A stretch of DNA of 64,000 nt, taken from Catajapyx aquilonaris (Eukaryota). Location of the stretch: contig KZ538464.1 in the NCBI GenBank assembly GCA_000934665.2, positions 1-64,000 on the forward strand, read 5' to 3'. The notes beneath the pieces were generated by a model. That model worked only from the letters and a program-made list of their open reading frames with translations. It was not told the DNA's origin and did no database searches. The position numbers and the translations under genes are program-made. Within the stretch, counting starts at the first letter, position 1. Each line of letters opens with the position of its first letter. This document shows positions 3,201-54,267 of the stretch, in pieces.

Positions 3201-5771
3201 GTTTCCCACCTGAACTTCAGCTGGTTGCCCTGTGCAGCTGCCTTTCCAACTGCAACCTGCCTACAGACCTCCGAGTTTGTTTGTCCATTTTGTCCTCTAT
3301 CCTTGAGCTTGTCGAAAATAATATCAAGCCCGATGACTTTACGTCTGCGTCTACAACCTCGGAATTCCATTCAGCTATGATTCATATGATCGTATGGGCC
3401 AACTCAGATTCAGTTTTAGAAACCCCGATTATACCTCAGGAAGTGTGCAGGTCATCTCGACATGCCTTGCATGCTATGATGGCCACTAATGACCTTGACA
3501 TGCTTCGTGTCCTGGTAACCCTGCCAAGCAAGGTTAGGATCGTGGGGACCACAATCCTGTTTCCCAATGGGCGAAAGACTATTCCCAAAGTGAAACATTA
3601 TGCCAGGTCATTTTCCCCAGCAACATTCAACCCCCTTGGAACCATGGAGCATCAGGAATCTGCAGAAGGAAAAGAGAGCTACTTCTTTCAGCTCGGAGGC
3701 ATTTGTGATCAGAGGGAAGATAATTCGACAGGTTATTTGAAGAAATTGGACATAGACAAGGAGATAGAGAAGCTCCGCATATGTAGCCCCAGGGTAAGAC
3801 TGAATTTGGTAATACTCCTCTTAACCCTGGAACCGTGACCTGCCTGAAAGTTATGGCAACCATGACGTGGTGTCTTTTAGGACCCCATCCATATTTTAAT
3901 TTTTATTAATTATTATATGATACTTTTCAATGTATTGACTATATGCAATCATTCTTTGAACAATGCCTAAGATGATTGCTAATTCAAAATAAACATGCAC
4001 TTCCTGTTATATATGCCTACTTTTAAAAAATGGCAAAAGTTCATTGTAATATATATTATCATTTTAATGCATTTTAATTCCTTTTGGGGTCCTAAAAGAC
4101 CCCACGTCACGATTCCAGGGTTAAGTCTGAATGGGCTACTTAATCATTTGCAGACATCAAGAATGTCACAGAGATTACCTTCTCCAGTACGCAAATACAG
4201 ACAGGAGGCCTGTTTTGAGTACCAGATCGGCAAGGAAGCTCTGGGAAGCACAGAAAAGGCGATCGTGAATGAACTTCCTGATGTGATTCCGATAAGGAGA
4301 GACATGGAAGACGTACAAGAGATGGACGAGTATGAACAAGAGACGGACGAGGATGAACAAGAGATGGGCGAGGATAAACAAGAAATGGACAAGTATGAAC
4401 AAGAGATGGACGAGTTTGAACAAGAGATGGACGAGTATGAACTTCCTGATATTCTTCAAATAATGAGAGACAAAGAAGACGTACAAGAGGACGAGGATAA
4501 ACAAGAGATGCACAAGTATGAACAAGAGACGGACGAGTATGAACAAGAGATGGACGAGTATGAACAAGAGATGGACGAGGATGAACAAGAGATGGGCGAG
4601 GATAAACAAGAAATGGACAAGTATGAACAAGAGATGGACGAGTTTGAACAAGAGATGGACGAGTATGAACTTCCTGATGTTCTTCAAATAATGAGAGACA
4701 AAGAAGACGTACAAGAGGACGAGGATAAACAAGAGATGCACAAGTATGAACAAGAGACAGACGAGTATGAACAAGAGATGGATGAGTATGAACAAGAGAT
4801 GGACGACTATGAACAAGAGATGGACGACTATGAACTACCTGATGTTCTTCAAATAATGAGAGACAAAGAAGATGTACAAGAGGACGAGGATAATCTCCCT
4901 TGTACTGCAAATAAGATCTTGAGATCCCGCCGACATACACCCGTAGAAGATAGGCTTGAATATGTGCGGGACATACGTCGTTTGGTCACTGAAGACGACG
5001 TACAAACCATCATAAGGCATCACAGGTAAGTTCTTGGCTTGGTGCCTTTATTTACAAACTTGTAATAATGCCCCCGCCTTTACAGAATTATTTTGTTGGC
5101 CCTGATGCACCTTTTGGAAGACGACTGTGACAGCGTGCAGTATCAGTCTTTGATGACTATCTCAGAGATGGCGGCCCACAAGCAACTCTTGCGTATTTTT
5201 GGCGGTCTTAGGGGGTGCGTCATGGCTCAAGTCCTGCGAGCTTTTAAGGATCCAAGCAAAAATGTAACTCCCACTTATGCTTTAAGAACACTGCTTGCAG
5301 TCATGCCAATGTGGCCATCAAAACAATATACATCTTTTCTCTGTACAGGTGCAGCGTGGAGCAGAGGCTTGCGCCAATAAGCTCATGTTGTATTTCAACC
5401 CCTACAGAACGCTCTCTGTTCTCATTCCGGTTATTGATGAAGGTTCCTTCCCATTGAATGCAGTGGCAGTGGGGCTGGTGGCCATCCTAGCCCGATCTTT
5501 CACACTTAACTCCAGTCAGGGAAAATGTCTGTCTCTCTACCTGACCTTCCTCGTGGGAGGTCTCATAAAGATTATCGCGAATCAGGAGACGAAGACGAGA
5601 TGGGAAGTTTTCAAATGCCTAGGAGTCTTGAGCCTGCGGTTTGGAAAGAAAAAGATGGCACCCCTGCTCGCCAATCTCACTCGTCATCAAGAGCTACTCC
5701 TGCAGGTGTACATAGATAAGCAAAGAGATGATTTCGAAAGTGGAATCAATATCTTTCATAGAGATGATTGA
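263..5771 (+). CDS. CLASP: Divergent CLASP/Orbit/MAST-like microtubule regulator (TOG3, acidic repeat, CLIP-interacting domain); 5' exons upstream of window
   Basis: Phase-compatible GT-AG exons: 263-490, 3032-3793, 4154-5025, 5086-5263, 5349-5771 (TGA). Spliced protein aligns by eye to CLASP TOG3 (LNVLTEILADMFYDPSPK|ILPLLLDALAELLIHHGPELHDWL vs LKRLCEIFTRMFADPHGKVFSMFLETLVDFIQVHKDDLQDWL) and CLIP-ID (AFKDPSKN|VQRGAEACA vs AHKDPHKEVVRSAEEAA; LLQVYIDK vs LLNLYIKR). Low identity suggests a paralog rather than the main copy. Confidence 0.85.
1831..1995. mobile_element. Tc1/mariner-type MITE, internally deleted copy of the element at 50434-50997
   Basis: CAGGGTGTTAAT...ATTAACACCCTG termini with TA on both sides; body near-identical to one arm of 50434-50997. 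Confidence 0.85.
2001..2488. mobile_element. MITE with CACAGGCCTGCGA TIRs; a second left end at ~1169
   Basis: cacaggcctgcgatgaaat at 2001 and atttcgcaggcctgtg ending 2488; homologous left end plus body at 1169-1300. Confidence 0.7.
3825..4120. mobile_element. piggyBac-like MITE (TTAA TSD) in CLASP intron
   Basis: ttaa|ccctggaaccgtgac ... gtcacgattccaggg|ttaa, plus subterminal IR gtcttttaggacccca / tggggtcctaaaagac. Confidence 0.8.
4271..4892 (+). repeat. Coding minisatellite: 21-bp unit (EQEMDEY) in four higher-order blocks starting ELPD
   Basis: gaacaagagatggacgagtat repeats; blocks start at 4271, 4439, 4667, 4832; frame preserved throughout. Confidence 0.95.
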
Positions 5772-6644
5772 TAGGCACACCAACATCTTTTATCGAGATA
5801 ATATTAAAAAGGATAACCTTGTTGCCTCATCACTTTTCCTCTGTATTCTAATGTCTTCCTCTAAGCATTTGAAGGTCCAATTTGCATTGGTAAATCCAGA
5901 CCAATATTTTGTGAATAACATTGATTTGGAACTCTTGTGTTCCGGAAATAATGTATCAGCGATCATGCTACGGGCCCTAAGCAAATCCTACAGAATGGAG
6001 CACTTCAGGTGGGGTTTTTTTCCCCTCCCCCCCCCCCTTTTTTTTGTACCTCTGCTTATTCACCCTTATAGGACTGGCGAGATGAGAAGCTCAGCGTAGA
6101 AGGCAGCACTGGGGTTGGAGTCATGATATGTGGTCAGTATGTGGCGGGACTTTCGACGTTGTTTCGGATGTAACATCCTACATAGCTGGATTTGTCTATA
6201 GATTTTGTCCAAAAGAAATTAGAAATGAACTTAGCATGTGAAGATTGTGTCCAAGCAATAACTGCATGATGAATATAAAAAAAAAATGACAGTTCTTTGA
6301 CATAAAGGAAAATCACAAGGGGTTGACCAGTTGATATCTTTCAAAATATGCAGGAACATAATAATGTTGCATATGGTTGTCTTCGAAAAATCAAGCTATT
6401 AGGGGGCACGGCGACGGCAGTGCCCCCGCCAAGTTCTCGCCGCACTGCCGTACCACCTTTACCCGACACAACTCACGTCATTTTGACCCCCTCGAATCTT
6501 CGCACTGGTGAACATAGGTGGCTTCAAAATTTTTATTTGGGTAGATAAAAATCGATTAAAAATAATACCCCCTTACTTCCATGTTCATATCTCTTCATTT
6601 CCGACTTTAAAAAATCCTCAAAACTCCCAAAACGTCCAAAATAT

Positions 6645-7855
6645 GACACTCACTCACTGACTGACTGGCTGACTCACTCACTGATCATCAAAATTATACG
6701 GTACTTCCCGTGGTCCTAGGATGCTGAAATTTGGTGTGCTGGTAGAGCTTGTCAAACAAACACCAGAATAAATATGAAAACAGCACTTTTTTGAGTGTAA
6801 ATGCTCAAAAAAAATAATTTATTTTCACGACGTCTGCTGCTGCTTTACCAGATGCGGCATTTTTACCACGGATTACTTTTTACTTTGAAATTCCAGTTAT
6901 GCTGGTGCTCCTCCTGCCTTCCCCACGTTCTCATCTCCTCGCCCCCCTCCCTTCCCCCCTCCTGCATACCGCTAGCCAACGACGTAGCCAGCCCCCCCCC
7001 CCCCGAAGTCTTGAGGATTTAAAAAAATCNNNNNNNNNNNNNNNNNNNNNNNNNNNNNNNNNNNNNNNNNNNNNNNNNNNNNNNNNNNNNNNNNNNNNNN
7101 NNNNNNNNNNNNNNNNNNNNNNNAAAAAATTTCGCCTGCGGCGGACCTCCCCGCTCCCCCCCCCGGATTCCTGGCTACGTCACTGCCGCTAGCTATCTGC
7201 CTGAAGCTGCGATTGCATTTCATACAAATACAAATATTTCATACAAATACAGCTACAAATACCTAAATACTTAAAATACAAAATAATACAAATACAAAAT
7301 TCGAGGTCATCAACAGCCTATGTGTACAGGGAACAATTCCCAATTTGTGTGGCGTATGCCATTACCATGCAGAGGACAGAGCCAAGGCCTGAGTCTCACT
7401 AATGCACTCATCGATATTGGTTCCTCTGTCTTCTCGTGCGGTCAAGCCTACGTGGCTCTTTCCAGAGTTAAAAGTATCAATGGAGTGCATCTCATCAATG
7501 CCTCCTTTACTAACATCAAGGCTCAAGAGTCTGCTATTCTGGAGTACGATAGATTGAGATCTATTTACCGACCAGACTTATCCATACTCAAAAGGGCTAA
7601 TAAGGCATCGACAGAAGTGGTTGAGGATCGCGAATGGGCTATGTGATCAGGTTTAGCAGATCTCCAATTCGCACAACCAGAACAGAAAAAAAGGAAGCGT
7701 AATATGACAAAGCAGAAGAAACTCATACCTATTCAGAGGAAAAGATAGAGTTTTACATTTTGCTCTAACAGTAAGTTATTCATTACCGTATTTGGAATAT
7801 TACGGACCATTGCTTCCACGCCCAACCGTAGGGGGCTCCCCGAGCTTTCTTATAA
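6645..7855 (+). mobile_element. Helitron/Helentron remnant with frameshifted PIF1-helicase C-terminus
   Basis: ~7315-7500 reads YVYREQFPICVAYAIT / SQGLSLTNALIDIGSSVFSCGQAYVALSRV (PIF1 motifs V-VI) across a frameshift; upstream (CACT/GACT)n microsatellite plus gctgaaatttgg motif typical of Helentron-associated elements. Boundaries approximate. Confidence 0.7.
6977..7185. mobile_element. hAT-type MITE nested in the Helitron remnant (spans an N gap)
   Basis: caacgacgtagccag ... ctggctacgtcactg TIRs with 8-bp TSD ccgctagc (6969-6976 / 7186-7193). Confidence 0.8.
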
Positions 7856-10977: not shown

Positions 10978-13935
<2,958 letters not shown>

Positions 13936-16410: not shown

Positions 16411-17760
16411 ACGACATTTCCCTGTAAGGGGTAGTCAGCGATGACGGGAGCCACAAGCTAACCCAAAATATGAACTAAATTAAAACTTGTAAAAATAAGC
16501 CTAAAAACAACCCGTCCCGCCCCCCACCCCTGCCCATCTCAGACGACAAACACTCAATATTAAATTTAAATTTGTATTTAAATTAATTGTATTAATTGTA
16601 TTGTATTAATTGTATTAATTGTATTGCTTGTATTAATTGTATTACTTGTATTAATTGTATTAATTGGATGTAAATTTGTATTTTGTGTTTAAATTTGTTT
16701 GTGTACCTGGGTAGTGTCCTTGAGAGTAATGGTAGAATGGATGGGGAGATTGACAGGAGAGTTAGTTCTGGGTTGAAAGTGATAAGTCGACGCCTAAGAA
16801 TTATATTGTCGTATGTCCAATGGACTTCCATTGGACATACGACAATATAATTCTTAGGCGTCGAAGTGCCACAAGTAAGTTTGCTAGAAATAAGGACTTA
16901 TCTTCTGCCTGTAGGTTGTCTGTCTATTCTCGCGTTATTGTTCCTTCACTTATGTATGGTAGTGAGGCTTGGGTTTCGTCAGATAGGCATAAGAGTAGGG
17001 TGTTGTGGGGTTACTAAGTTGGATCTAGGATTAGGAATGAGGAGATTTTTCAGAGGTGCAATGTTAAGGAGAGTGTTAAAGATAAGGTGTGTATTAGGTC
17101 TACTCTAATAGGCGGTTTGGCCATGTGGAGAGGATGAAGGAGGAGGAGATTGTGAAGAAGGTTTATTTGGGTGGAGTAGTTGGTAAGAGGGGAAAGGGTA
17201 GGCCTAGGAAGACATGGTTAGACCAGGTGGGTCAGTGTCTTAAGGGTGTTGCTAGTGTTAAGCCTAGACGTTCATGTGTCAATAGGACCATGTGGCTGAG
17301 GCTAAGGTTGTTTGTTTGGATAGGTGTAAATGGTGTAGGTTAATTAATGGGTAGAATATTCACAGGTTTGTGAGGCATGGCAGAGTCCATTGAATTTTTT
17401 CGAATGGCTAGAATGTTTGCAGGTTGGTGGGAGGATTCCCGATTCGGCATCAGGAAGTTCATACTCGGGCTTTGGGTGCTGTGCAGAACTACAAGTTTGG
17501 CAAATATCTCTTGCGCAGTAATGCATAGGTAGACACCGGTAGTCATGCTTGCAAGGGTATCTGCCTCTCTCTCTCTCTCTGTCCTGTACAGCACTTGGAG
17601 TTCGAGTATGGATTTCCGTATGCTGGTTCTTCTCGCTGGCCTGTGGGTGTTCTGGTCGTTTGGAGGAGAATATTCTAGTCACTTGGAGGAATTTAACAGT
17701 TGCTGATTCCTCTTCCAGGGGAGGGGGGGGGGGGCATTTTTTTTCGAAAAGTACCACGTT

Positions 17761-18918: not shown

Positions 18919-19270
18919 GGGAGACGGAGTAGCGCTGCGGTAATGTACTCGCCCACGGATGTTAAGGTCCCGGGTTCGAACCCAACCTGGGGAGACCTCC
19001 TTCATCTTGTGCAGAGTTCTCGGGTCATCTCTGGCTTCGTTTCGGGTGGTATTTCTGACAGACTAAGCCACCCAGGGGAGCTCGCAAAATGACCTTACTA
19101 GTCGATGCACTGCACCTTGCACATCCCCTCCCAGTCCCCCTGACTGTAGGCCCGGGCGCTTATTCTAACATGACCTAGGCTTCTATAGGACTTCAATCGA
19201 TGGTGTATAGGAGCAATGGCTCTCCCCGAATACCCTGTAAGGGGTGGCAAGGGGTATTACAAAAAAAAAA
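18919..19270 (+). mobile_element. tRNA-derived SINE with poly(A) tail and 15-bp TSD
   Basis: A box tagcgctgcgg, B box ggttcgaaccc; TSD aagtgattaatttca at 18904-18918 and 19271-19285. Confidence 0.9.
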
Positions 19271-20020: not shown

Positions 20021-23000
20021 ATGGGCAAGAACAATCAGGCATATATCGTCCCTCGATATCTTCATGACACCAGCAGGAAGATTTCCTATGAAATTGGAGA
20101 GTTCCTCGGAAAGGTGTGTGTTCAAGATATACCTTAGTCTAAAGTCTAAACTCTAAATAGTGCTTTTTATGGCGAGCCAAAATGCGAGTAATATGCGAGT
20201 GTGCCTGGATGTTTTATAATTTCAGTTAACTAATATTACCAACTCAAGTCAAAGGAATACTTTTGACAAAAATGTAGTGCACAGTGTTTAGAAGGAAGGC
20301 TAAATATTTTAATAGTGACTCTACAGAGATATAGAGTCTTTCATTTTCACCTTGATAATTTTGTGTTAGATTCCTCTGTATGCAAAATAAAAAGATATTT
20401 CAGAACTGGGGGCGTAAGTGGTGGTGTTTGGTGAAGTAGTGTCTGTAGAAAGCCTCATGTGACGCATATAATGACAACAAGAAACAAACAAAGACGAACA
20501 AAAAATACATTTAACTATACAATGTCACCAAATAGGTTTCTTACAGAGTGGAAAGTGTTTTTATCGATGACCACTACAATGTCATTAACACCTTAACATT
20601 GTGCTTGAAAATAGCCTTCATCAATATTGGTGACCGCATCTGACAGTATTATTTTTGCCATTACAGGGGAGCTACTCCGAATGCTATGTATTGAAGAATC
20701 AGAGTACCAATGAGCGCTATGCAATTAAAATAATTAGTAAGCAAGTGCTTGCAAGCGCTGCCAAGGAACAATTGGAACAGGAAGTTTCGATCCATCAACA
20801 GCTAGACCACATTCATGTTGTGAAATTTTACAGTTCGTTTGAAGATGAACACAATTCGTACCTAGTGTTAGAATTGTGCCAAAATGGGGTAAGGAGTGTC
20901 TTTCTGCCCTGGTTATATGGTCTGCTCTGATCTTGACCCTTGCCTATTTCAGGATGTAGAGGGCCTCCTCAATACCGGCAAAGTGTTCACAGAGTCTGAG
21001 GTGCGTTACTTCATAAGACAACTATTGTTGGCAGTAAGGTATTTTCATGAAAATGAAATTATACACCGTGACTTGAAGCCTTCCAACATGTTCCTCAACT
21101 CCTCTGCTGAGCTAAAAGTTGGCGATTTTGGCTTTGCAGTCCGGGAAGACAATGAGGAAGGGTTGAGGTTAGTGCCTTGTTTGTGTTTACGCTCTTATAC
21201 TTTCAATGGTTTTGTAGGATTATAAGGACACATTCTGCAGTGCAGTATTATCATGATTTACGACAAGGGCAAGTATTGGGAGTTGGGAATGACACAATCT
21301 CTGATTCAAAAGTATACCCCGCCCAGAATATAAGAAATTATCATACTATAGTGGAAAAACGAGAAAAAATGTTTTTATAACTTATAGCCTACACATAGTG
21401 ACATGGTAGAGAATGAAGAGTGTCACAATATTCAAGGAACATAATTCCAAAATAGATGGTGTTGTGCAAGCGCCATCTCTCTATTTTCGTCTCTCTCCTT
21501 CAGAAATAAAGATATGTCCAGCTTAGGAGCAGTTCACGTCAGGGTCGTTGAAGCACACCTCCACCACCCCGGCAAGGTGACGACACTATTAGATAAATGC
21601 GAGTTTGGCCTGCCACAATAATAAGTCATTTGGGACATGTCCTTTCCTCATAAGGAGTTGCTGTGCTGACTGAATGTAAAATCATTGGTCGCTCCTTACA
21701 AAAATGGGACTGAGTTATATATTTTTGATGGTATTACTTTCCTAATTTCTTGGAGAAGCTGTGGCTTTTGGAGTGACCCAAAAATGTAAAACACTACAGT
21801 TGGAACAGAAGTCATTGCCCGTATTTTAAATTCGAAGACCACTACGGTGATTAACCATATGTGATGAGCTGCCCGAGTGCTATCTAATGCGACAAAAACA
21901 GCATGTTGTTAACCTATCAAATTATTTCAGAACACAAAATGTGCTATTCTTCGGAAATGGTGAGGTGTGGCGGGGATGATGTAGTTACTTTTTTGGCTAA
22001 TTTATGTAGGGTTTCTTTTGAGAATGGTGTACATAGTTCCTAGGGATTGGAGGGATGCTATTATAGTACCTCTGTATAAGGGTAAGGGAAATGTGTGTGA
22101 CTGCAAGAATTATCGTGGCATTAGTTTGTTAAGTGTACCAGGGAAAGTGTATGCTAAGGTTTTGATAGAAAGAGTTAACAGGGTCACTAGTCAGAGAATA
22201 CTGAATATTCAGAGTGGGTTTATGTCGGGTAAGAGTTGTGTAGATGAGATAATTATTCTGTATGAGACTCGTGATAGAAAAGTATTTAGCTGTAAACAAG
22301 AAGGTTTATGTTGCCTTTGTAGACTTAGAGAAAGCCTATGACACAGTGAGTAGGGAAGGTTTGTGGGAAGTTCTGAGTCTCTATGGAGTGCATGCCTGTT
22401 GGAGGCTGTAAAGTCATTGTATGAAGAGAGTAGAGCTTGTGTTAGAACTAGTGGGGGTTTCTCTGACTGGGTTAACATTAGTGTTGGGGTTAAGCAGGGT
22501 TGTGTCTCCCTGGTTATTTAACTTGTACTTAGATGCATGTATAAGGGAAGCTATGGTTGAAGGTGTAGGAGTGCAGTTTGGTGATGAGTTAGTTAGTCAC
22601 TTGCTGTATGCAGATGATTCTGCCCTTCTGGCGGAGAGTGAGGCTGATTTACAGTTGATCCTATGCAAGTTAGATAATGTTTGTGAAAAGAGGGGTATGA
22701 GGATTAACGTAGATAAGACTAAGGTATTTGTATTTGAAAGAGGACAGTAGGTTTCTCCTTGTATGTTGCAGGTACGCGGAAAACTGGTTGCGCAGGTCAA
22801 CCAGTTTGCATACCTGGGTAGTGTTCTTGAGAGTAATGGTAGAATGGATGGGGAGATAAACAGGAGAGTTAGTTCTGGGTTGAAAGTGATAGGTGCCACA
22901 AGTAAGTTTTCTAGAAATAAGGACTTATCTCCTGCCTGTAGGTTGTCTGTCTATTCTCACGTTATTGTTCCTTCATTATATATGGTAGTGAAGCGTGGGT

Positions 23001-26000
23001 TTGGTCAGATAGGCGTAAGAGTAGGGTGTTGGCTACAGAGATGCGTTATCTCAGGGCTGTTTGTGGGGTTACTAAGTTGGATAGGATTAGGAATGAGGAG
23101 ATTTTTCAGAGGTGCAATGTTAAGGAGACTGTTAAAGATAAGGGGGCCGTCCAGACGGGCCAACCTTAGCCGCGGCCAACCGCGGCTGGTCGAGGCCGCG
23201 ACTGTTCACACGGCAACGGCCACGGCCAGGCCACGGCTCAGAAGTTGGCCAAGTTGGCCGACTTCCTGGAAGTTGGCTCGCTGCTTGGCCACGGCTTGGC
23301 CTCGGCGACGGATACTGCGCGTCACTTGTTTTTCGTCGCTGCCATGACTACCGGCCACTATTACAACTGCGGGTGGCTGTTATTAAAATATGTGCCCGTC
23401 TGAACGGGTACCGTGGCCAGCCGTGGCTCCGCAAGCCGGGGCCGACGCCAGGGCCGCGGCCAGCCGCGGCTAAGGTTGGCCCGTCTGGACGGCCCCAAGG
23501 TGTATAGGTCTACTCTAAGGTGGTTTGGCCATGTGGAGAGGATGAAGGAGGAGGAGATTGTGAAGAAGGTTTATTTGGGTGGAGTAGTTGTTGGTAAGAG
23601 GGGCAAGGGTAGGCCTAGGAAGACATGGTTGGACCAGGTGGGTCAGTGTCTTAAGGGTGTTGCTAGTGTTAAGCCCAGACGTTCATGTGTCAATATGACC
23701 ATGGACGTGGATGAGGCTAAGGTTGTTTGTTTGGATAGGTGTAAATGGCGTAGGTTAATTAATGGGTAGAATATTCACGGGTTTGTGAGGAATGGCAGTG
23801 TCCATTGAATTCTTCTGAATGGCTAGAATGTTTGCAGGTTGGTGGGAGGAGTCGGCGTCTGGAAGTTCATACTCGGTCTCTGGGTGCTGTGCAGAACTGC
23901 AAGGTTGGCAGATATCTCTTGCATAGTAATGCATAGGTTGACACCGGTAGTCATGCTTGCAAGGGTGTCGGCCTCTCTCTCTGTCCTGCACAGCGCTTGG
24001 AGTTCGAGTGTGGATTTCCGTATGCTGGTTCTTCTCGCTGGCCTGTGGATGTTCTGGTCTTTGGAGGTGAATATTCTAGTCAATTGGAGGAGTTTAACAG
24101 TTGCTGATTCCTCTTTCAGGGAGGGGGGGGGGGGGGCACTTGATTTCTNCTCTGTATAGTGTAAGATTTAAATTTAATATTGAGTGTTTGTCGTCTGTGA
24201 TGGGCAGGGGTGGGGGATGGGACAGGTTGTTTATAGGTTTATTTTTACAAGTTTTAATTTAGTTATTATTTTGGGTTAGCTTGTGGCTCCCGTCATCGCT
24301 GACTAGCCCCTATAGGGAAATGTCGTGATGGTGATGATGATGATGACAAAATAGGAACCACTTTATTCAGAGTTAGTCAGAACTTCAGGTCAATCCTCCT
24401 TCATGATAATCGTTGGCTCAATACAAATATAAAATACAGGAGCAAATAATGCCGAAAATCCAACATTTAACGATGTAGCCAACTCGACAATGCAATTAGG
24501 ATGGTCACATTTGTCTCAACAATATCCTAACCGCCAAATTTGTGGTTTAAGGCTCGGTTTTCGACATTTTTCACCCACACATTTTCATTTGTTTTGAACC
24601 AACGAGTACTGGGAGACTACCCTAGTTAGATTGACCTGGACTCACCCTGCTGTACTAATATTGTTTTCCCTTATACAGAAAACAATGCGGCACACCGAAC
24701 TATATCTCACCAGAAGTCATTCGAAGGAAGAATACCCAGACTCGTGCTGTTGATATGTGGGCAATTGGGTGCATACTATACGAGATGATTATTGGGGATC
24801 CCCCATTTATGGCCAAGACGAGGAAAAGGACTTTCAGGAGAATAGTGAAAAACGCCTATTATATACCGGATGACGTGGGAGAATTGCCCCGATCATTAAT
24901 AACGCTACTTCTTCATGACGATCCTATCATGCGACCAACAGCTACAGAGGCTCTTTTAGATCCTTTCATGGCATTGGACCCCTATCCCGGGCAGTTGGAA
25001 ATATCCCTCCTCATCGAAGCTTTACATCTTACGCCTAGAAGTGACAATAGCATCGGTATGGCTAAATAGGGAGGCATTATCGGAGTCTAGAAAGAGCTGC
25101 ATTTCTTGTGCTTACATCTTACAATCACTTGGGCCTGAAAATTATGTTGCACTTAAATATCACTTGCTCTTCCAAGTCAATTGGAACAATAATTAATTAT
25201 TATTCAAGAATATGCCCAATGATGTCATTTAGTGATTGCAGTATTATCGTAGCTGCTGAGTTACGTTCCTGTAACATGCAAGTTGCTTTGAAAAATGGCT
25301 AGAAGATAACTGCTAGTTGCAACTGTCCCTGTAGTTTTGAAAAACTTGTAGCCTACAGTGTTAATCCTCAATTCCTACTCACCAGCAGTGGCTCCAGTGG
25401 CACCCGAACCCATCAGATTACCCCCTAACAAATCTGTTGAAAACTCAGCAGACAAAGAGATCCATGATTCCTACCCTGGACACACAATACAGCAAAGGGG
25501 GAATTCGATAGGATCCAAGTCACTAGATTCAGTGCACAGTACTTGTGTTCTTGACATTAATGGAGGAATGAATTTAGTTCTGGTGGATGGGCAGCTTGTC
25601 TTTACTGATGGAGAGCAAGCAGTGAAGATTCTTCATTGCTCAGATCCAGAGCAAGTGCGCTGTGAGGACTACCCTATTGGTGGTAAGTGTGGTTGACCAG
25701 GGCTGACCCCATCACCACATGCTCGTTTATTCACTGTAATCACTCATCCCATCTCTTGTACTGGACAGCTCTTATTGTGCCAGAGGCTCCCAAAGAGCCA
25801 TCACATGTCCCCTTGCACCAGCCTGGGGTCCAAGACTCACTTCCAGCACCCCAGTTTGGCGAAGTTGCTCCTGGGGATAAAAATATCTTGACACAAGGCA
25901 AGTTATGCTCTACGCATTATTTTGGTCTGATATTAAACACTGGGCAACACTGACAAAGGCTTTCAAATGAAAATAGCAAATCTTCACTTATTTCGAGTTA

Positions 26001-26270
26001 CTGAACACGAAGATGACGTTGATTGGCTCTAGTTTAGGAGAAACAGGCATGGTCATAATCATGGTCATGTATACATACTGTACACATCACAGAGGAACCA
26101 CGCGAATTTCTATGTGAAGTTCATGTTCAAATGGTGTTTTTTCAGGTTATCTATCTGCTAGTAAGAAAACAGCTCACCTGAAAAGCCCTAGATCTCAACA
26201 GTTTTTGAGATGCAGGGGTCAAAAGGTCAAAAATGGATATATTATGCAAGGCTCTAAGGAAGCCATATAC
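20021..26270 (+). CDS. polo: Divergent Polo/PLK1-type Ser/Thr kinase; 3' end unresolved, no recognisable polo-box domain
   Basis: Kinase exons 20021-20113, 20667-20888, 20953-21167, 24679-25055; putative tail exons 25386-25682, 25769-25897 (GC donor), 26146-26270; all phases compatible. IVPRYLHD..SYEIGEFLGK|GSYSECY, AIK, EVSIH, VLELC, HRDLKPSNMFL, DFG, CGTPNYISPE, DMWAIGCILY..IGDPPF, DPIMRPT match Plk1-3 kinases. Confidence 0.85.
21951..24346 (+). mobile_element. 5'-truncated RTE-clade LINE (RT pseudogene, 3' UTR, (GAT)n tail) in Plk intron 3
   Basis: IIVPLYKGKG..NYRGISLLSVPGKVY, QSGF, AFVDLEKAYD, SPWLFNLY, LLYADD, LRWFGHVERM; frameshifts and stops. Confidence 0.95.
23143..23496. mobile_element. 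GC-rich PIF/Harbinger-like MITE nested in the RTE
   Basis: ggggccgtccagacgggccaaccttagccgcggc TIRs, 3-bp TSD AAG; empty site gataaggtgt visible in the other RTE copy (~17081). Confidence 0.9.
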
Positions 26271-26870: not shown

Positions 26871-27237
26871 GGGGAGATGAAGTGCCGCCGCGGTAACGCG
26901 TGCGCCCACGGATATGAAGGTCCCGGGTTCAATCCCCACCCGGGGTTCCCACCTTTATCCATGCAGAGTTGGGCCATCTCTGGCTTCATTTCGGGTGGCA
27001 ATTTCCGACAGACTAAGCCACCCGGGGGAGTTCACAAAATGACGATTAGAGACATTGCACTTGCACTTTGCACATCCCCTCCCACCCACCCTTGGAGTAC
27101 ACTAATAAGATTCTATCTTAACTCGCTCCAACTAAAACCCCAATGGTGATAATCCACCCCCCCCCCCCTAAGGAGTACGTAACTCCCCCCGTGGGGTAAT
27201 GAAAAAAAACAACAAAAAACAAAAAACAAAAAAATAA
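26871..27237 (+). mobile_element. tRNA-derived SINE (same family as 18919) with 16-bp TSD
   Basis: B box ggttcaatccc, A-rich tail, TSD taataattgctattta at 26853-26868 and 27238-27253. Confidence 0.9.
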
Positions 27238-31151: not shown

Positions 31152-32069
31152 CCCTTTGCTGCCTACGGCCATCATATGATGTCCGGAGATTTGCCCTGCC
31201 AACTTGGGTCATTTTTCAACGCAAAAAATTTCAACCTCACCGATTTTCTTGAAATTCGGTGCATTGGTAGCCCACCCCAAGGGATGAAAAACGCACCTAT
31301 AGTTACCTGATCAAAATGACCTCGTGACCCAATTTTGAGGGGGGCAGAGGTCAAATTTCGACCTCACCGGATTTTTTTTCAAATTCGGTGCATTGGTAGC
31401 CCACACCAAGGGATGAAAAACGCACCTATAGTGACCTGGTCAAAATGACCTCGTGACCCAATTTTGAGGGGGGCAGAGGTCAAATCATAAAATTCCGACC
31501 TCGCCGATTTTCTTCAAATTCGGTCAATTGGTAGCCCACCCCAAGGGATGAAAAACGCACCTATAGTGACCTGATGAAAGTGACCCTGTGACCCAATTTT
31601 GAGTGGGGCAGAGGTCAAATCATAAAATTCCGACCTCGCCGATTATCTTCAAATTCGGTGCATTAGTAGCCCACACCAAGGGATGACAAACCCACCTATA
31701 GTTCCCTGCTCGACATGACCCTGTGACCCATATTGGAGGGGACCTATGTCAATGCGCCGAATTTCAAAAAAATTTGTGACTGGCACTTGCAAAGTCTGCC
31801 TTGTGATTCACTAAGGCGGGTAGTACGTGTACGCAAAAAATGTAAGTGTGTATAACCTTGGTATAACCCCCGAATTTCAAGAAAATCGGTGAGGTTGGAA
31901 TTTGACCTCTGCCCCCCTCAAAATTGGGTCACGAGGTCATTTTGATCAGGTAACTATAGGTGCGTTTTTCATCCCTTGGGGTGGGCTACCAATGCACCGA
32001 ATTTCAAGAAAATCGGCGAGGTCATAAAATTTTCGGAAAAGGGGGAAAAAAAACTCCGTCATCAAAGGG
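31152..32069. mobile_element. piggyBac-like non-autonomous element with internal ~125-bp tandem repeats
   Basis: ttaa|ccctttg ... caaaggg|ttaa; four direct units at ~31230-31745 and an inverted unit at ~31870-32025. Confidence 0.85.
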
Positions 32070-39300: not shown

Positions 39301-42300
39301 CAGACATGCCTGAACGGGTTAGGCACGACACCGATTACCTTACTTACATTTTTTGAGCGACAAATGGAGCTAATATCGAAACAAACTATGCTAAGACCAA
39401 AACTTTAGATATTTCTTAACATTTCAAAACTGAAATCATTTAGATGTGTCTACAGATTTTCGAGATACAGGGTTTGAAAAATGGGACATTCTTTTTCGAT
39501 GACCCTGTACTTCTTGTCAGAGCAGGAGAGGGACAAAAAATTGGAGTAGGCATGGTATGGCAAGAGGGTCAATATATGGCCTCAGGATCAAGCCTAGACA
39601 CTATACGATGTTACTAGATTAGTCACGCTTGATCCCTCAAATGACAACCCAAGCGAATTTTTTGCAGATCCTTGCAAAAACGCGAAAAAACTGTCTGTCT
39701 AATTAGGGTTAAAATGATCTAAGATACCTGGTATCTCCTGTGGCACTTTTAAATTGGAAACAATACAAAATTGCAAATTTTAAAAGCAGATTTTTGCAAT
39801 ACCAGAATAAGACAGAGGGCAAACTGAATTTCACTTTTTCATCATACTTCATTAGAAACATATTCCACTCAAATTTGTGATGGTTCATCTAATCATTGGG
39901 GATGCATTTATCTCTTTTTAACTCTTGCTTGAAAATATGTTTTTCCTGAGTTGCTTCCTCCTAATGACATTCTGCTGGTGAAGCATTACCCTTTGCCAGA
40001 ACCAGAACAAAATGCAATGGAAGTGTAAGTATCCAAGATGGGTATGGAAAAAAGAAACTTCATCTTCTTTTTAACCTTCCTTAGGGTATACATTTCTTCT
40101 GAGTAGCCCCCTTCTCTCACATTCACTAATGAGGGCCCTGCAGTGTGTCATGACCTGGCTTAAGTTTCAGGTATGATTCGAGTAAGTATCCTATTTGGGG
40201 TCGGGAAACGAGCAAGTGGGCACTGGGACAGAGTGGTGAGAGAGAATGAAGATATAAGTAGGGAGTGCATGTAGTGTAATAAGAGTGAACAAATGTGTAG
40301 TGCTGAGAGCTGAATTAGCATAGACAGTTGAATTAGTGTGGATGATTGAACATCTGCAAAAAATGGGAATCTCCACACCAAGTAGTTATGATTGCCATTG
40401 CACAAGCTTGTAGTTAGCAGAATCCAATAGAATCAACTTGCAAGGGAACAGCATCCACTAGCTGTCATTTTGCTCAAACCAGTCTCAACTGGTAGAGGTC
40501 GAATCATGCAACATGTTGCATTACAGAGGCTCTCTTTAGCCATGGTGTGATACTGCTGAAATATTAATCTAGTGATTTTTCTAACTAATAAGAACAATGA
40601 AGCACTCCTGGATACCCTGCAGCATGTGTATGTCAAAAGTGAAATTCATGAGGAAACATTTTAAGTGAAGTGAGGTAACAAAACCTGAAAATTTTCACCT
40701 CAAATGTTGCACTTTACTGATAATAAGCAATCATTCATCAAGTTTACCCTGTTTGAAGTGTTTTTTAAAATTTATTTTTGCATTGGGGATCAAATATTTA
40801 TATTAATGAATTTATTTAAAAAAAAACTCACATGTTATTGCTTAACCCAGATATGTCGAGTGTGCCCTATAGGGGACACCTGCACAGTTATTACATTTTA
40901 ATTTTTTGCACAGGTTCTTCTGCTGCTAAAGAGCTGGCAGTAGTGATGGGGGCTTCAGTAGAGTCCCAGCTAACTATACAAGTTCAAACCTGCTCAATAT
41001 TGCTTCAGATTTTTAAGATACAGGTGTTTGAATTTTAACGCAGAAAATAATGGCTGCACCTCCACGTTCCGAAGACGATTAGTAATTAATTCTCGAATGT
41101 TGATTAGCATTGTGAGTTATTTTTTGTTTGTAATACTTAGAAAACTTATGAATGATGATGTCCATGTGGAAATATAGGCATATTTTTTACTTTCCTTGTC
41201 TGAGGGTGGCGTTGAAATCGGGTGTCCCCTATGAGGGACACTCGGCAAATGCACCACAAATGGATCGGCAAGTCAAGCACCGGTACTCCAGGCTACTGTA
41301 TGCGTCCGGACTTTGTGCGTTTTGTCGAACTGAATTTTTATGAATCCCTATTTTTAAAACGAGGGTTACACGGCAACTGGGTTACCATGGCAACCATCGT
41401 AGCTATGCTGGTAACCCATTGCCATGTACAATCAAACATTATCATGCATACAAACTTTCTCTTTTGGGTAGAGTGAAGCCCCCCCCCCCCCCCCCCNNNN
41501 NNNNNNNNNNNNNNNNNNNNNNNNNNNNNNNNNNNNNNNNNNNNNNNNNNNNNNNNNNNNNNNNNNNNNNNNNNNNNNNNNNNNNNNNNNNNNNNNNNNN
41601 NNNNNNNNNNNNNNNNNNNNNNCCCCCCCCCCCTCCCGCCACCAACGACGTCTAGATCCGCCACTGGCGAAACCTGTGTATAGCAGAATAGCACGGTGCC
41701 CTAGAAAAATTGTAATCGACAAGTTTCCGCTGAAAATTACGATTTTCCTAGTCATCAGCACCAAACGGGAAAGACGAGTGGAAGTGAACGCTGCAACGGC
41801 GCAAAGCATTGTGGGCAGAGAGTGGGGGAGGAAAAAAAGTGGCGCTGTTGTTGCGGATCGCGTGCGAACCATTCGATGTCGGATATACATAGTACGGTAT
41901 ATCAGCCGTTTCCGCTATATTCGACACGGTATTTATGTCCTATTCATACGCCCGTTCCCGGAAAAATTTCGCAATGGACAAGTTTTTGTAACACTCAGGG
42001 TACGTTATGGACAGGTTTCACTACATATTTATCTAGAGTGAATCCTGTCCATAACGGACCCTCAACGTAACCGAAACTTGCCTATTGCGGAATTTTTCTT
42101 GTAACAGGCGCATGGAAAGTACACAATTTCCGCGTCGAATATAGCGGAAATTGTGTAATTTTCATACGCCAGTTACCAGAAAAATTCCGCAATAGGCAAG
42201 TTTCCATTATACACAGGGTCCGTTGTGGACAGGGTTCACTGTGTATTTATATACAGCGAAACCTATACATATCTGACTAGCAAGCGACTCTAAAATTCCG

Positions 42301-43644
42301 CAATGGACACGTTTCCGTTATACCCTCCTGAGACCAGAGAAGCCATTTGTGCAATTATTTAGTAATACTTTGGAAGAACCCTCTATAGTGGAGGTGTAGA
42401 AGCCATTTTTCAGAATTTCATATTTTTGTTGCAATCACTTATTGCAAATTTAGATGTCCTATATATAGGACACTGGGTCTTAGCTATAACATTCCTTCTC
42501 TATATTTTTCAATGAATTTAAAAAACACTTTCATCTTTATTTCAATACAGCAGCCTATATCTTACGTTTTCCTTGTATATACAGTATAGCCATACTAGAT
42601 GTTACATTTGCCGAGTGTCCCCTATAGGGGACGGCACTTTTCTTACAATCTAGCATTCCATAAATTTTTTTAACATTTTTGTTGTGTTTTGGAGACTATC
42701 ATGAACTAATAAAATCAAACAAAAACCAAAATGTAAACAAAAAATCTTTCAGGCATATCTGGGTTAAGCGAAATTAAGTGATTTGTTTGAAAATAAACTC
42801 AGCATGCATAATAATTATTACGCTACCATTTTCTTTGCAGGCAACGAGCACCAAGCGTTGACAGTGAGAGTGTGTCCTCTGCTGAGCTTAACAGTCCCGA
42901 AACAGATGAGTATAAGTTTGTGGAAAATACTCATGCTGCTCAGGTAATGGTGTTTCTGACATCTTGTACAGTGTTGGACATTAATCGAGTGATACTGCTA
43001 GCGACATTTTCCGAAGCGGCAGAAGAACGAATCTTGCTCGCATGGCTTGCACTCTCCATATTTTCGATTCGTTATTCTGCCACTTCGGAAAATATCGCTA
43101 GCAGTATGACTTGATTAATGTCCGACACTGTGCTATATCACTCAAAAAGATGGCCAGATGATTTTGCGTTGGGTTTCAATGCAAAATCATCTCCATAGTT
43201 TTGAGCAATATAGTACCTTTAGATTCAGAGTCTTGAAATTTTTGAGTAACACTTGTTGCCTCTTTACTGCCCTATTTTTGTCAATATTCACAGGTCTTGA
43301 GTGGTTTGAATGAACTTCGCCAGACTGGCAAGTTTTGTGATGTTACTCTCTGCATAGATGGTGAAACTTTTCCTGTCCACAGGAATGTGTTGGCTGCTTT
43401 TAGTCCTTACTTTAGGGTGAGCATATCTGCAATTATTTTTCTAATTTAATTCAATAACAAAATTGAAGATGTCGGAAAAGGATATGGTGGCAATTACATA
43501 TAGCAGATCTTTTCAAAAATGTGCCATTATGTTCTTGTCCTGTGATATATTCTGGTTTTATGGGTGTTCCAAGTATCAGGGTCATTTTTAGTCATCACTA
43601 AAGACCAGGGGGGAATTTTAGTCCCACTGCTAGTTACTTCAAAC

Positions 43645-43715
<71 letters not shown>

Positions 43716-46700
43716 CCCATTAAAGGGAACAGAGCCCTTTTACGGCGAAGAAAATTTCATAAGAAAAAATTGTTACCACCATTTTTTCGGATAAACTATT
43801 GTTTATCCGCACCTTAATAGCACTGTTAGGCGGGTGGGGGGCTTCCCGACGGTTGGCAACGTTGCGTCTCAAACAATCGGGTGCCTATTGATACTGCTGC
43901 ATGGTTACATGGAACTGTGCTTTATTCTTCTTTTCGGCCTTTCGGGGATTCAATTCGGGATTTTGAGGTGATTAAGTGGATGGAATAGCCCTTTCTCTTG
44001 GTGTTGCTGTATGGCTTTTTGTTACCGCAGCAGTAATGTACATTGTTGTGGCCTGTGCGTGATATTTTTAGTTTTTGCGGAGCGATAGCGGAGCTGGGCG
44101 CTTATTGTGGGTTTCTGTATCCGCAACATTTACTGTCCGTCTTGTGGCGCCGCAGGCCAACGACCGTTATTGTGGCTTTGCCAAGCGCAAAGTACACCTT
44201 CACACAGTCCGTTAAACCAACGAACTACATGACGCCAAGTTCCGCCCGCCACCACCCCTCCCCTCCAATCATGCTCACGACTCACTCTGCAGGCATACTA
44301 CTGCACACCCTCAGAAAACGCGGCTGGTGTGACATCATATCGTTCTTTGGGTTCACGGACTGCAGCAACCATCATGGCTTTCATATTTCCCACCTCCTTC
44401 ATTAATACTGTGGTCCTAGCACTCGTCTGAACGGTTCGCATGGCAGGGGTAAGAAGACGCCCTATGTTATGCTCTCCCGGAAACCGGTTGTTTGCAACGG
44501 GTAGCCAACATGTTTGGAGCACACGACGCCCTGCCAATCCCACCGCGTCGCTAGGTGCGGATAAACGATAGACTTTCCATTTTTTCTTATGAAATTTTCT
44601 TCGCATATTTCTCTCCGGTGCAGGGGTCAGGATAGGGATTTGTGAGGGGGGGATATGGGTGCAGGTGCGATGTCCGAAATATGGGGGTCGTGTGGAGTCC
44701 CCCAGGGGGCCAAGCTACAAGACAGCCCCCTAGGTGCGGGTCAGAAACACCCCACCGACACCGCACCTCCTCATGGACAGGACAAGGATAGGAAAGGAAG
44801 GAAGCGGCTGTGGCCTATTTTACGGTACGATCCCGGAATTTTTCCTGGGGCGACCTTGGAAAACCACAGAAAACTAAGGTCAGGACCTCCGGCCTCCGGG
44901 ACTCGAACCCAGGACCTCCCGATTAGCAGTCCGGTACCATATCCACTCCACCACTACTGCTTCGGATAGTTACTTCTAACTTAGCAGTCCCATATACAGG
45001 GTGTATCAGAGTCACAGGTCAAGCGAGGGGGTGGGAAAAAATCGTAGGTGGCGATAACCCCGGTCAGTTTTATAAAACAATCAAGAAAATAAGGGAGTAA
45101 TCGATTTTTTATTACGGAAATATGGCGTGACGTCACGTCCTTTCCGTTCGAACTGAGAGGCGTGGAAAGGTGAGTATGGTGTGTACAGCGGCTCTCTAGC
45201 CGTGCCGGTTGCACTGAACAAGGCGCTCTCATGCTCTCCCGCCTTCCCACGCAAAGCATGGGGCTGGGCTTGGACCTCGGCAACCCCTCTTTGCGACCTG
45301 CCCATGCAACGGTGCACCAAGAAATGGCGGAGGATGTCGAGCACCGATGTCTCTGTACAGGCAGGAATGACAGAACGCATACCGCGTAGACATCATCCTC
45401 ATTTAAAAATCGCGAAAAATGTTTCTTGCGGTGGACAGACTGCTGCGTGAGGCCGGTACCAGCCGGTACATTGCGAGGCAGGCGAGATACGTCAGATGCT
45501 TACAGTAGTACAGTGTGTAGTACACCTGTACTGTAGTACAGCACTGCACTGGCTAGATAATGCCTGTGTACAGTAGTGTAAGGTACTGTAACAGTACTGT
45601 ATCGCACATCATGACAGGTGCACCTTGGACCGCACGTACCATGGCAATGGAGGAAGACGTTCTGGACATGGTAGCCATGGACCCATCGATCAGCACCCGT
45701 GAAGTCGGGCGTAGAGTGCACAGCATTCATTCCAATGTGTGAAGGATCATCCATGACATCATCCGAGCGAATGGGCGCCAGTTCCAGGATTTCCCATAGT
45801 CACGTTATGCGTACTGACAGCCAACTTCATGGGTGCTGATCGATGGGTCCATGGCTACCATGTCCAGAACATCTTCCTCCATTGCCATGGTGCGTGCGGT
45901 CCGAGGTGCATTGTGAGATACAGTACTGTTACAGTACCGTACACTACTGTAAACAGGCATTATCCAGCCAGTGCAGTGCTGTACTACTGTACGCACCTGA
46001 CGTATCTCGCCTTCCTCGCAATGTACCAGCCGGTACTGGCCTCACGCAGCAGTCTGTCCACCGCAAGAAACATTTTTCCCGATTTTTCAATGAGGATGAC
46101 GTCTACGCGGTATGCGTGCTGTCATTCCTGCCTGTACCGAGACATTGGTGCTCGACATCCTCCGCCATTTCTCGGTGCACAGTTGCATGGGCAGGTCGCA
46201 AAGAGGGGTTGCCGAGGTCCAAGCCCAGCCCCATGCTTTGTGTGGGAAAGCGGGAGAGCATGAGAGCGCCTTGTTCAGTGCAACCGGCACGGCTAGAGAG
46301 CCGCTGTACACACCATACTCACCTTTCCGCGCCTCTCAGTTCGAACGGAAAGGACGTGACGTCACGCCATATTTCCGTAATAAAAAATCGATTACTCCCT
46401 TATTTCTTAATTGTTTTATAAAACTGACCGTGGTTATCGCCACCTACGATTTTTCCCCACCCCCTCGTGCGTGCTTGACCTGTGACTCTGATGGACCCTG
46501 TATACGCAACTAAGCATCAAAAAACGAGCGAATTTCAGCTTTCAGCGAATTCACTTCTGACCAAATGTATTCACGTAAATCGCCTGAGGAAGCAAGCAAA
46601 TTGTGGTATTTGTGTGACTACCCTCAAAATCGTGGTCATCTGTCAGAGCCAGATAGAAGTGAATATTTTTCCTGCGATTTGTATGATGTGACTGTAATAC

Positions 46701-52700: not shown

Positions 52701-54225
52701 TCATTATTTGTGACTGGAGAAATAAGTGCATAAAACTGACAAAAACTTCACATTTGCATAATGCACTTATGAAACAGGTTATTGCGTTATTCTATAATGT
52801 CAATAATTATCAATGGTGGGCACAGCTAACCGAAAAATCAGCTTCTCTAACAGCTGATCAGCTAACTATAAAAAATTGGATTTGCTAAATAGCTAATGCT
52901 AAATGGCTAGAAAATTAGTTAAAGCTAATGCTAACAGCTAACTTCCTTTTTTTTGCTCTATGACCCTTAAAAACCAGACCTAAGCTGATAAAGCCTAGAG
53001 AGCATTGTTATACATACGCCTTATTTAGTTATTTACTGTTCCGTACAAAAAGTAATAAACAAATCCAAAGAGGTAAAAAGTTTATGTGTCTCAGAAGAAA
53101 GCTACAAAGACAGGCAAGGCAAAATAATTTATATTAAAAAACTGGTAGCTATAATATATGAAGGGCTCGGGAGTAAACAATGGTAAGGGATATGTAAAAC
53201 CCATAGCCTACCCTTACCCACCCTTACCATTGTTTACTCCCGAACCCTTCATATAATCCGCACTTTAAAAAGGAACAGACAGCGAGACAGGAATCGCAGA
53301 ATGTTAAACTTTATTAGCCCCAAAGCCTCCCACCGATCTTCTTCAGGTAAACTCCTCTCATTACTGCCACACGTGAAAATCACTGAAATAATAGGAAAAA
53401 ACAGTGGCATAATCTCTCCTCGTCAAGTCCCCCTTTTTCATTCATTGGGTCATTGCTCAAGAACAAATGCAGATTTAAAAACTGCAACTCGTATTTACTA
53501 TCTTCATTAATGTGGTTATCAAAATATTAACTTACCTGGTAACGAAAAGCAACCTCCCACTCACGGCAACCAACACTATGCCACCAAGTGCAAAACATCA
53601 AAATTTCAACAATAATAATTTATTTTACGGGCCTTACAGCAACAAATCGCGAATTATCTTCGTGATTATCAACCTTGTACATTTATCAATGTAATGGAAT
53701 ATGCCTCATTTCGCTAGTTTACGCCCGCTGCCAGTAGGGAGCATTGTTGTCCCAAAAAACGCGCTGGCATAATTTCTCCTCGCATTGCACAATCTCCCGC
53801 CGTTTGACGGTGGACGGTGGTTTGGACAAGGGCCACATACTGAAATAATTCACTGAAAAAAGGCTGATTCCCCCCCNAAATTTCGTGAATGGCCCCCGCC
53901 CACCAGTGTTGCGCAATCGGGCTGAAATTTTATATTTCACATCAACAACCATGATTTTTTTTCAGCAAAATCGGAGATGGTCAAGCAACACTTTGACTCA
54001 GTTGAGCTGGAATGACCCCTGGGTAATACCTCAAATAGAGGTCTGCACTACCCAAATTATTTATTATAATAATTAATAATTCATACCACGTTATCAGCCG
54101 GCGGCTCTTTAGGGGGGATTTTTTTGACTGGAACTCTTCGTTTCGTTTTTACTGCGCTTTTTGAGAAAGGATAGGAAAGGAAGGAGGCGGCTGTGGCCTA
54201 TTAGTTTAGGAAACAACTCCGGAAA

Positions 54226-54267
<42 letters not shown>

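Follow-up and report, generated by a model that had tools for sequence, protein, structure and literature searches.

INTRODUCTION

Polo kinases are defined by a kinase domain, a polo-box domain, and an Aurora-controlled switch in the activation loop (T-loop). As stated in PMC7113694, PLK1 is activated by Aurora A together with Bora through phosphorylation of Thr210, and its polo-box domain binds to the kinase domain itself as well as to primed phosphopeptides. Duplicates of these genes are on record in arthropods. The Daphnia pulex genome was reported to contain three PLK1 genes and six partial PLK1-like copies, some of which have evidence of expression (PMC2680839), and the duplicate Dpse-polo-dup1 of Drosophila pseudoobscura is described as testis biased, with a proposed specialization in the male germ line (PMC11708218). 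Narrow phrase searches of open-access texts retrieved no description of a natural polo-like kinase (PLK) without a polo-box. Here, we analyze a gene for a Polo-type kinase in a stretch of 64,000 nucleotides from Catajapyx aquilonaris (positions 1 to 64,000 of contig KZ538464.1, GenBank assembly GCA_000934665.2), which is referred to below as the window and has the features of eukaryotic DNA, with a GC content of about 40%, introns, and transposons. The kinase exons of this gene, at 20021-25055 on the forward strand, retain the catalytic core, have a Lys in place of the T-loop Thr, and are followed by no detectable polo-box. The reading that we favor, and in which we place about even confidence, is that the gene encodes a working, re-wired Polo-type kinase.

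RESULTS

The kinase domain is distributed over four exons, which read as follows:

20021-20113, + strand: exon 1 (E1), with the ATG start and the N-terminal sequence leading into the glycine loop (ending ..FLGK); donor AAG/gtgtgt
20667-20888, + strand: exon 2 (E2), with the glycine loop, the AIK Lys, and the helix-C Glu, extending to the hinge (..CQNG); acceptor ..ttacag/, donor GGG/gtaagg
20953-21167, + strand: exon 3 (E3), with the Asp at the column of PLK1 S137, HRD, DFG, and the N-terminal half of the activation loop; acceptor ..tttcag/, donor GAG/gttagt, phase 2
24679-25055, + strand: exon 4 (E4), completing an Arg codon and continuing with the T210-column Lys, then the P+1 loop, the C-lobe, and a linker of PLK1 type after the kinase domain; acceptor ..tatacag/A, donor G/gtatgg, phase 1

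When joined, E1 to E4 give 302 codons with no stop, and all eight splice signals are canonical GT-AG. The Pfam Pkinase profile is matched collinearly by E2 (profile positions 9 to 83; E = 1.7e-16), E3 (positions 83 to 152; E = 6.1e-19), and E4 (positions 154 to 263; E = 4.2e-21), and this exon model is far beyond chance. The match for E1 is weak, with residues 10 to 31 of a nematode PLK (P0003) aligning to 20048-20113 (tblastn; E = 2.4). A processed pseudogene (retrocopy) is ruled out by the three introns with canonical signals within the kinase domain. At the E3/E4 junction, a single position of the Pkinase profile remains unmatched, and there is therefore no space for a micro-exon that would restore the T-loop Thr. 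The GAG/gttagt donor and the ..tatacag/A acceptor are the sole good sites at this junction; a weaker GT upstream of the E3 donor would give a loop that is two residues shorter and still without a Thr. The Lys therefore stands, and the micro-exon that had been named as a possible way out is excluded by the profile coverage together with the splice sites.

Comparison with proteins of known structure in the PDB points to PLKs for each of the three main kinase exons. In phmmer searches, E2 scored 49.5 bits with PLK1, 48.9 bits with PLK3, and 48.8 bits with PLK2, compared with 45.4 bits for calcium-dependent protein kinases (CDPKs) and 42.0 bits for PLK4, while E3 scored 70.9 bits with PLK2 and 63.4 bits with PLK1. 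The clearest separation was seen for E4, with 94.6 bits for PLK1 versus 67.1 bits for Aurora A and 67.0 bits for PLK2, a margin of 27 bits, and the alignment of this exon to PLK1 extends beyond the kinase domain into the inter-domain linker. PLKs also head the blastp ranking obtained with the joined domain. Library proteins were sorted by Pfam architecture, a procedure that does not tell PLK1 rows from PLK2/3 rows. Over the whole domain, identity is 36 to 45% (median, 41%) to 32 PLK1-like proteins, 36 to 38% to two PLK4 proteins, and 33 to 35% to CAMK-like kinases. The PLK1-like proteins share 35 to 75% identity among themselves (median, 50%), and two library proteins that both carry a POLO_box, P0136 and P0077, are about equally divergent, with median identities of 42 to 44% versus 41% for the window gene. 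A POLO_box is present in 10 of the 13 nearest relatives scanned. Identity as a PLK4/SAK protein was rejected, as scores and identities are lower than those for PLK1 to PLK3 and no cryptic polo-box family was matched.

A quick maximum-likelihood (ML) tree built from 73 kinase domains places the gene basally in a 33-row PLK1-like set (Shimodaira-Hasegawa-like approximate likelihood ratio test [SH-aLRT], 90, not starred), with the PLK4 pair as sister, and gives it a long terminal branch (0.79 versus a median of 0.44). However, the approximately unbiased (AU) test does not reject a polo-box-type clade of 34 PLKs that leaves out the window gene (p-AU = 0.575), and the tree excluding the gene exceeds the quick free one by 4 log-likelihood (lnL) units. 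By every similarity measure, the domain is of PLK type, and it is either basal among the polo-box-bearing PLKs or their sister. An earlier reading of the DNA by sequence alone (the sequence-only reading) had called the protein a Polo kinase and proposed a kinase phylogeny as a check. This membership is a matter of sequence similarity, the best PDB matches being to PLK1, PLK2, or PLK3 for each exon; the placement within the PLK clade is insecure, since the AU test allows a position outside the polo-box-bearing PLKs.

The same test would permit another origin, namely, that the gene is not Polo derived at all and encodes a CAMK-like or unnamed "Other" Ser/Thr kinase that merely resembles PLKs. 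Two of its residue states, a hinge Asp and the motif HRDLKPSN (both described below), are indeed general or CAMK-like, and the E2 scores for CDPKs and PLKs are close. We nevertheless regard this origin as very unlikely: PLK1, PLK2, or PLK3 is the top match in all three kinase exons, with the wide margin in the C-lobe, the PLK-type lead-in at the N terminus and the linker beyond the kinase domain could both be aligned, the free tree groups the gene with the PLK1-like set, and identity is highest to PLKs.

Two of the residues that set the gene apart from its relatives lie at positions of known regulatory importance in PLK1. At the E3/E4 junction, the split codon AG/A encodes Arg and is followed by K-Q-C-G-T-P-N-Y. 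In the alignment with the PDB entry 2yac_A, this Lys pairs with the T-loop Thr of PLK1, which precedes the Cys of CGTPNY by two residues. The corresponding column in the 32 PLK1-like relatives contains Thr in 26, Ser in 5, and Asp in 1 and never Lys. The same holds more widely, as 88 CGTPNY[IV][AS]PE motifs found among 155 library proteins have Thr (81 motifs), Ser (6 motifs), or Asp (1 motif) at this position and Lys in none. Moreover, the stretch of the window kinase from DFG to the P+1 loop contains no Ser and no Thr. The hinge runs across the E2/E3 junction (..CQNG/D..), which puts an Asp at the PLK1 S137 column, where the 32 relatives have Ser (23 proteins), Thr (8 proteins), or Ala (1 protein) and never Asp. 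The sequence-only reading had reported Lys at the T210 position and Asp at the S137 position, and the alignments confirm both, each residue being unique among the 32 relatives. In addition, the helix-C Lys that precedes the catalytic Glu by four residues in nearly all relatives is a Gln in the window gene.

S137D is an activating change in PLK1, and the hinge Asp had been taken to be a change of this kind. This interpretation does not hold. Among 40 non-PLK1-like kinases, the S137 column contains Asp in 24 and Glu in 9, so that 33 of 40 are acidic, and it is Glu in both PLK4 rows; an acidic residue is the general consensus at this site. Because most other kinases share it, the hinge Asp does not indicate that the enzyme is activated. 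The caveat that PLK4 and other kinases also have Asp or Glu here, which accompanied the original interpretation, was well founded.

The glycine loop, the AIK Lys, the helix-C Glu, HRD, the catalytic-loop Asn, DFG, SPE, and the C-lobe Asp and Arg are all present, in agreement with the intact catalytic core (AIK, helix-C Glu, HRD, and DFG) noted previously. Beyond this core, all 24 columns that are invariant among the 32 PLK relatives are retained, as are 34 of the 45 columns with 90 to 99% conservation, and the replacements in the latter are mostly conservative. PLK signatures are among the replaced residues: GGFA of the GKGGFA glycine loop has become GSYS, and HRDLKLGN has become HRDLKPSN. Together with the hinge Asp, these two motifs account for 5 of the 11 changed near-invariant columns. 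The share of consensus residues retained declines steadily from the highest to the lowest conservation class (100%, 76%, 55%, 41%, and 20%). Such graded retention has the signature of purifying selection on the kinase fold, and with the 24 of 24 invariant columns it argues for such selection, since neutral decay would have altered invariant sites; if per-site retention were 0.8 or lower, keeping 24 of 24 would have, by simple arithmetic, a probability of about 0.005 or less. The overall pattern is one in which universal kinase residues are retained and PLK-specific residues have been given up. Because every universally required kinase residue is retained, an active Ser/Thr kinase is the most probable product of the gene. 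Arg is also conserved in HRD and at DFG+4.

Downstream of the kinase exons, the next gene on the + strand, which encodes a BTB-Kelch protein, begins at 43246, and no polo-box is detectable in the interval. Pfam searches gave no POLO_box (PF00659) at an E value of ≤1 for the tail open reading frames (ORFs) described below and none at an E value of ≤0.1 for 150 + strand ORFs of at least 40 amino acids within 25066-47989. These 150 are part of the 242 + strand ORFs from 25050 on, the other 92 lying beyond 47989, in or after the next gene. The cryptic polo-box families of Plk4 (PF18190 and PF18409) also had no match in the Pfam scans. In tblastn searches with six library proteins, only the three kinase exons were matched, with nothing elsewhere under an E value of 0.1. 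Four of the six queries have a POLO_box, three of these spanning the full polo-box domain (PBD), and of the remaining two, one is of PLK4 type and the other is a ciliate kinase for which no POLO_box is on record. Custom hidden Markov models (HMMs) built from 17 PB1 segments and 11 full PBD segments were run with the --max setting on 2,805 ORFs of at least 15 amino acids in six frames, and the best E values, 1.1 to 1.9, belonged to unrelated ORFs. Thus, the earlier statement that there is no canonical polo-box is supported by Pfam, tblastn, custom HMM, and hhalign searches as far as 43.2 kb, where the next gene begins; hhalign was used for the first of the putative tail exons, which aligned to polo-box alignments with a probability of 0.1 to 0.2%. 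That value also gives no statistical support to the suggestion that a stretch of this exon is at best a polo-box relic. The relic, a by-eye echo of polo-box strands and of an "EDYP" stretch present in P0002, was dropped in view of the negative Pfam, custom HMM, and hhalign results.

Three open frames that are splice compatible with E4 and with each other are tentatively regarded as tail exons:

25386-25682, + strand: putative exon 5 (E5), 99 codons, in frame with the E4 donor, phase 1
25769-25897, + strand: putative exon 6 (E6), Pro rich (8 Pro in 43 residues), phase 1 to 1
26146-26270, + strand: putative exon 7 (E7), basic (9 Lys plus Arg in 42 residues), ending in phase 0 at a gtaagt donor

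E5 is preceded by a NAGNAG tandem acceptor (cag/cag) at 25383-25388, and E6, which could be skipped in frame, has a GC-AG intron donor, AAG/gcaagt (25898-25899), that fits the consensus. Joined, E1 to E7 amount to 486 codons without a stop. Were splicing to end after E4, E5, E6, or E7, the predicted protein would have 306, 405, 462, or 536 residues, respectively. Scored for codon usage against 210 null ORFs, E5, E6, and E7 fall at the 96th, 99th, and 81st percentiles, values that are hints only, as the model is weak: cross-validated scores of known kinase exons run from just -0.11 to 0.09 bits per codon, compared with a null median of -0.15. The three frames have no Pfam match. For E5, none of 28 candidate homologs scored reached an E value of 10, and the ESM Atlas contained no usable match. 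The sequence-only reading had described the tail as Pro rich and then basic, which agrees with E6 and E7 as predicted frames, and had proposed structure prediction of the C terminus. Such a prediction was made with AlphaFold2 (AF2) for E5 alone and gave no informative fold (mean predicted local distance difference test [pLDDT] score, 40.1; predicted template modeling [pTM] score, 0.19), the model being too poor for a fold search. The putative tail is probably largely disordered and would be unrelated to a polo-box.

These results bear on a further explanation, that the gene model is incomplete and that a polo-box or other targeting domain is too divergent to be detected or lies in short exons, in an assembly gap, or elsewhere. 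The joined frame E1 to E7 runs into a splice donor before any stop, a run of 126 N lies at 41497-41622, the Pfam scan was limited to ORFs of at least 40 amino acids, and the AF2 model of E5 (pLDDT of 40) is uninformative rather than negative. There is also a precedent in the kinetoplastid kinetochore kinases, whose divergent polo-box domains are described in PMC4821238 as having been missed by simple sequence searches. On the other hand, the unfiltered PB1 and PBD models found nothing in ORFs as short as 15 amino acids in six frames, tblastn with PLKs that include the full polo-box domain found nothing, and the hhalign probability for E5 was negligible. We therefore judge an incomplete model to be improbable.

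Intron 3 measures 3.5 kb because it holds a non-long-terminal-repeat (non-LTR) retrotransposon, into which a second element has been inserted:

21985-24062, + strand: degenerate non-LTR retrotransposon lying within intron 3 and oriented like the gene
23143-23496: insert resembling a miniature inverted-repeat transposable element (MITE), nested in the intron-3 retrotransposon, with 44-nucleotide terminal inverted repeats that are 93% complementary

RVT_1 matches are found in the ORFs at 21985-22338 and 22412-22747, which are in different frames. A second copy of the retrotransposon, at 16697-17660, is 90 to 96% identical to the intron-3 copy (22804-24062), which suggests that the family was recently active, and the offset between the two copies changes by about 300 nucleotides across the MITE-like insert.

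A young retrotransposon in the sense orientation would be at home in a gene that no longer works, and the window gene could be the nonfunctional remnant of a partial Polo duplication that copied the kinase half only, with tail frames that are open by chance and odd residues that reflect relaxed constraint. This explanation would account for the failure to find a polo-box, for a tail with no homologs and no predicted fold, for the unremarkable codon-usage score of E7, for the loss of PLK-specific signature residues, and for the lack of an ortholog in the protein libraries searched. It also has precedents, since the six partial PLK1-like copies of D. pulex were read as pseudogenes or remnants in the account of PMC2680839, and polo-dup2 of D. 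pseudoobscura is described as possibly a pseudogene (PMC11708218). Several features of the gene speak against it, namely, the 302 open codons over four exons with eight canonical splice signals, the retention of all 24 invariant columns, and the concentration of substitutions in variable columns (100, 76, 55, 41, and 20% retention by class). Neutral decay to an identity of about 41% would be expected to hit invariant sites and to add stops and frameshifts, although function may have been lost very recently. On balance, we think it rather unlikely that the gene is a remnant of this kind, while taking the possibility seriously.

Other features recorded in the window are the following:

18919-19006 and 26872-26959: short repeat copies, 76% identical, flanking the kinase gene, with a tRNA-like GGTTCGAA/GGTTCAAT box
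10978-12585, + strand: three exon-sized ORFs, each with an RRM_1 domain (E = 3e-12 to 6e-20), belonging to a gene for an RNA-binding protein that lies upstream of the kinase gene
43246-56038, + strand: BTB-Kelch (KLHL/diablo-like) gene of about 13 kb, downstream of the kinase gene
31216-31755: four tandem copies of a unit of about 135 nucleotides, 77 to 89% identical to the first
5986-6024, + strand, in the ORF 5716-6096: SYRMEHFRWG, matching the adrenocorticotropin (ACTH)/melanocortin core (PF00976; E = 1.3e-5)
3983-5026, + strand: open frame of 348 codons for a highly acidic repeat protein of YEQEMDE-type units, with no Pfam match
63925-63996, - strand: tRNA-Ser (anticodon GCT), predicted by ARAGORN
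7030-7123, 41497-41622, and 56643-56652: N runs (assembly gaps)

The repeat that flanks the kinase gene is probably a tRNA-derived short interspersed nuclear element (SINE). The Kelch exon shares 70 to 72% identity with insect kelch-like proteins; other invertebrates and vertebrates are nearly as close, and none in the library is closer, a pattern that points to a bilaterian invertebrate as the source of the DNA. The SYRMEHFRWG match scores 25.4 bits, just below the 27-bit cutoff, has no dibasic cleavage sites alongside, and may be due to chance or be part of a repeat-encoded ORF.

DISCUSSION

In the working, re-wired kinase that we favor, a kinase domain derived from, or sister to, the Polo (PLK1 to PLK3) lineage would have evolved fast and yet kept every universally required kinase residue. 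Since the loop contains no phospho-acceptor, T-loop activation of the Aurora/Bora type cannot work as it does in PLK1, and phosphorylation of this kind could not switch on the enzyme. Likewise, with no detectable polo-box, polo-box control cannot act in the known way; there would be no autoinhibition by a polo-box and no docking of one to primed phosphopeptides. The activity would then be set by the time and place of expression and by the unrelated tail. A germline-specialized role is plausible by analogy with other Polo duplicates. A stronger version of this proposal is an "unplugged" Polo, which would have shed both the Aurora/Bora T-loop switch and the polo-box and would be under selection, expressed, constitutively competent, Polo-like in its substrate preference, and aimed by a new disordered tail, possibly in a germline or embryonic role. 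We consider this stronger version possible but doubtful. The sequence-only reading had arrived at an Aurora-independent, retargeted Polo; the lack of a loop acceptor and of a polo-box is in keeping with the first part of this description, while the retargeting and the role in the gonads are speculation.

Several observations weigh against a working kinase of Polo descent. The HRD Arg and the Arg at DFG+4 would form a basic pocket for a phospho-Thr, and in this protein the pocket would face a Lys, which is unusual in an active RD kinase. Insertions of retrotransposons in the sense orientation are often selected against in working genes, so the young element within intron 3 is a slight cause for concern. 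The 3' end of the gene model is open, with the 126-N gap lying ahead of the next gene. A search of 1.84 billion representatives yielded no ortholog and no self-match; the best identity was 53%, on fragments, and the library matches of highest identity are canonical PLK1-like fragments that carry the Thr. Finally, the AU test and the slightly better tree without the gene leave room for a place outside the polo-box-type clade, and the partial copies of Daphnia provide an example of PLK1-like sequences that were taken to be remnants.

If the gene does encode a working kinase, it would show what a bare Polo catalytic domain is capable of in vivo and how activity is maintained in an RD kinase whose phospho-site is occupied by a Lys; it would also be a further case of a cell-cycle kinase duplicate that has specialized. 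If it is instead what is left of a partial duplication, it would be an ordinary by-product of gene duplication, as already described in Daphnia.

Among known systems, the window gene is most similar to PLK1/Polo (human PDB entries 2yac and 2ou7 and zebrafish Plk1, 4j7b), which ranks first or nearly first among the PDB matches for each kinase exon and with which it shares the CGTPNY P+1 loop, the N-terminal lead-in, the post-kinase linker, and all catalytic residues. It differs from PLK1/Polo in having Lys for the T-loop Thr, Asp for the hinge Ser, and Gln for the helix-C Lys, in the GSYS and HRDLKPSN motifs, and in that no polo-box domain was found, and its identity to PLK1-like proteins is only 36 to 45%. 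The acidic hinge residue, Glu in both PLK4 rows, and the motif CGTPNYISPE are points of likeness to PLK4/SAK. PLK4 keeps the T-loop Thr, however, and it is a poorer match overall, with 42 versus 49.5 bits for E2, an identity of 36 to 38%, and no place among the 60 best matches for E4. The laboratory PLK1 mutants T210D and S137D are altered at the same two positions as the window gene. In contrast to T210D, the Lys in the T-loop of the window gene is not phosphomimetic, and in contrast to S137D, its hinge Asp represents a common kinase state.

With regard to natural duplicates, Dpse-polo-dup1 resembles the window gene in being a fast-evolving, lineage-specific copy of Polo, but it is described in PMC11708218 as retaining the canonical Plk structure, including the polo-boxes, whereas the window gene is without a detectable polo-box. 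Daphnia POLO-F to POLO-K are similar in another respect, as they are extra, truncated, and divergent PLK1-like copies in an arthropod genome that has full PLK genes beside them. According to the account in PMC2680839, these copies carry stops, rearrangements, or chimerism, whereas the window kinase is open, correctly spliced, and has kept the invariant residues.

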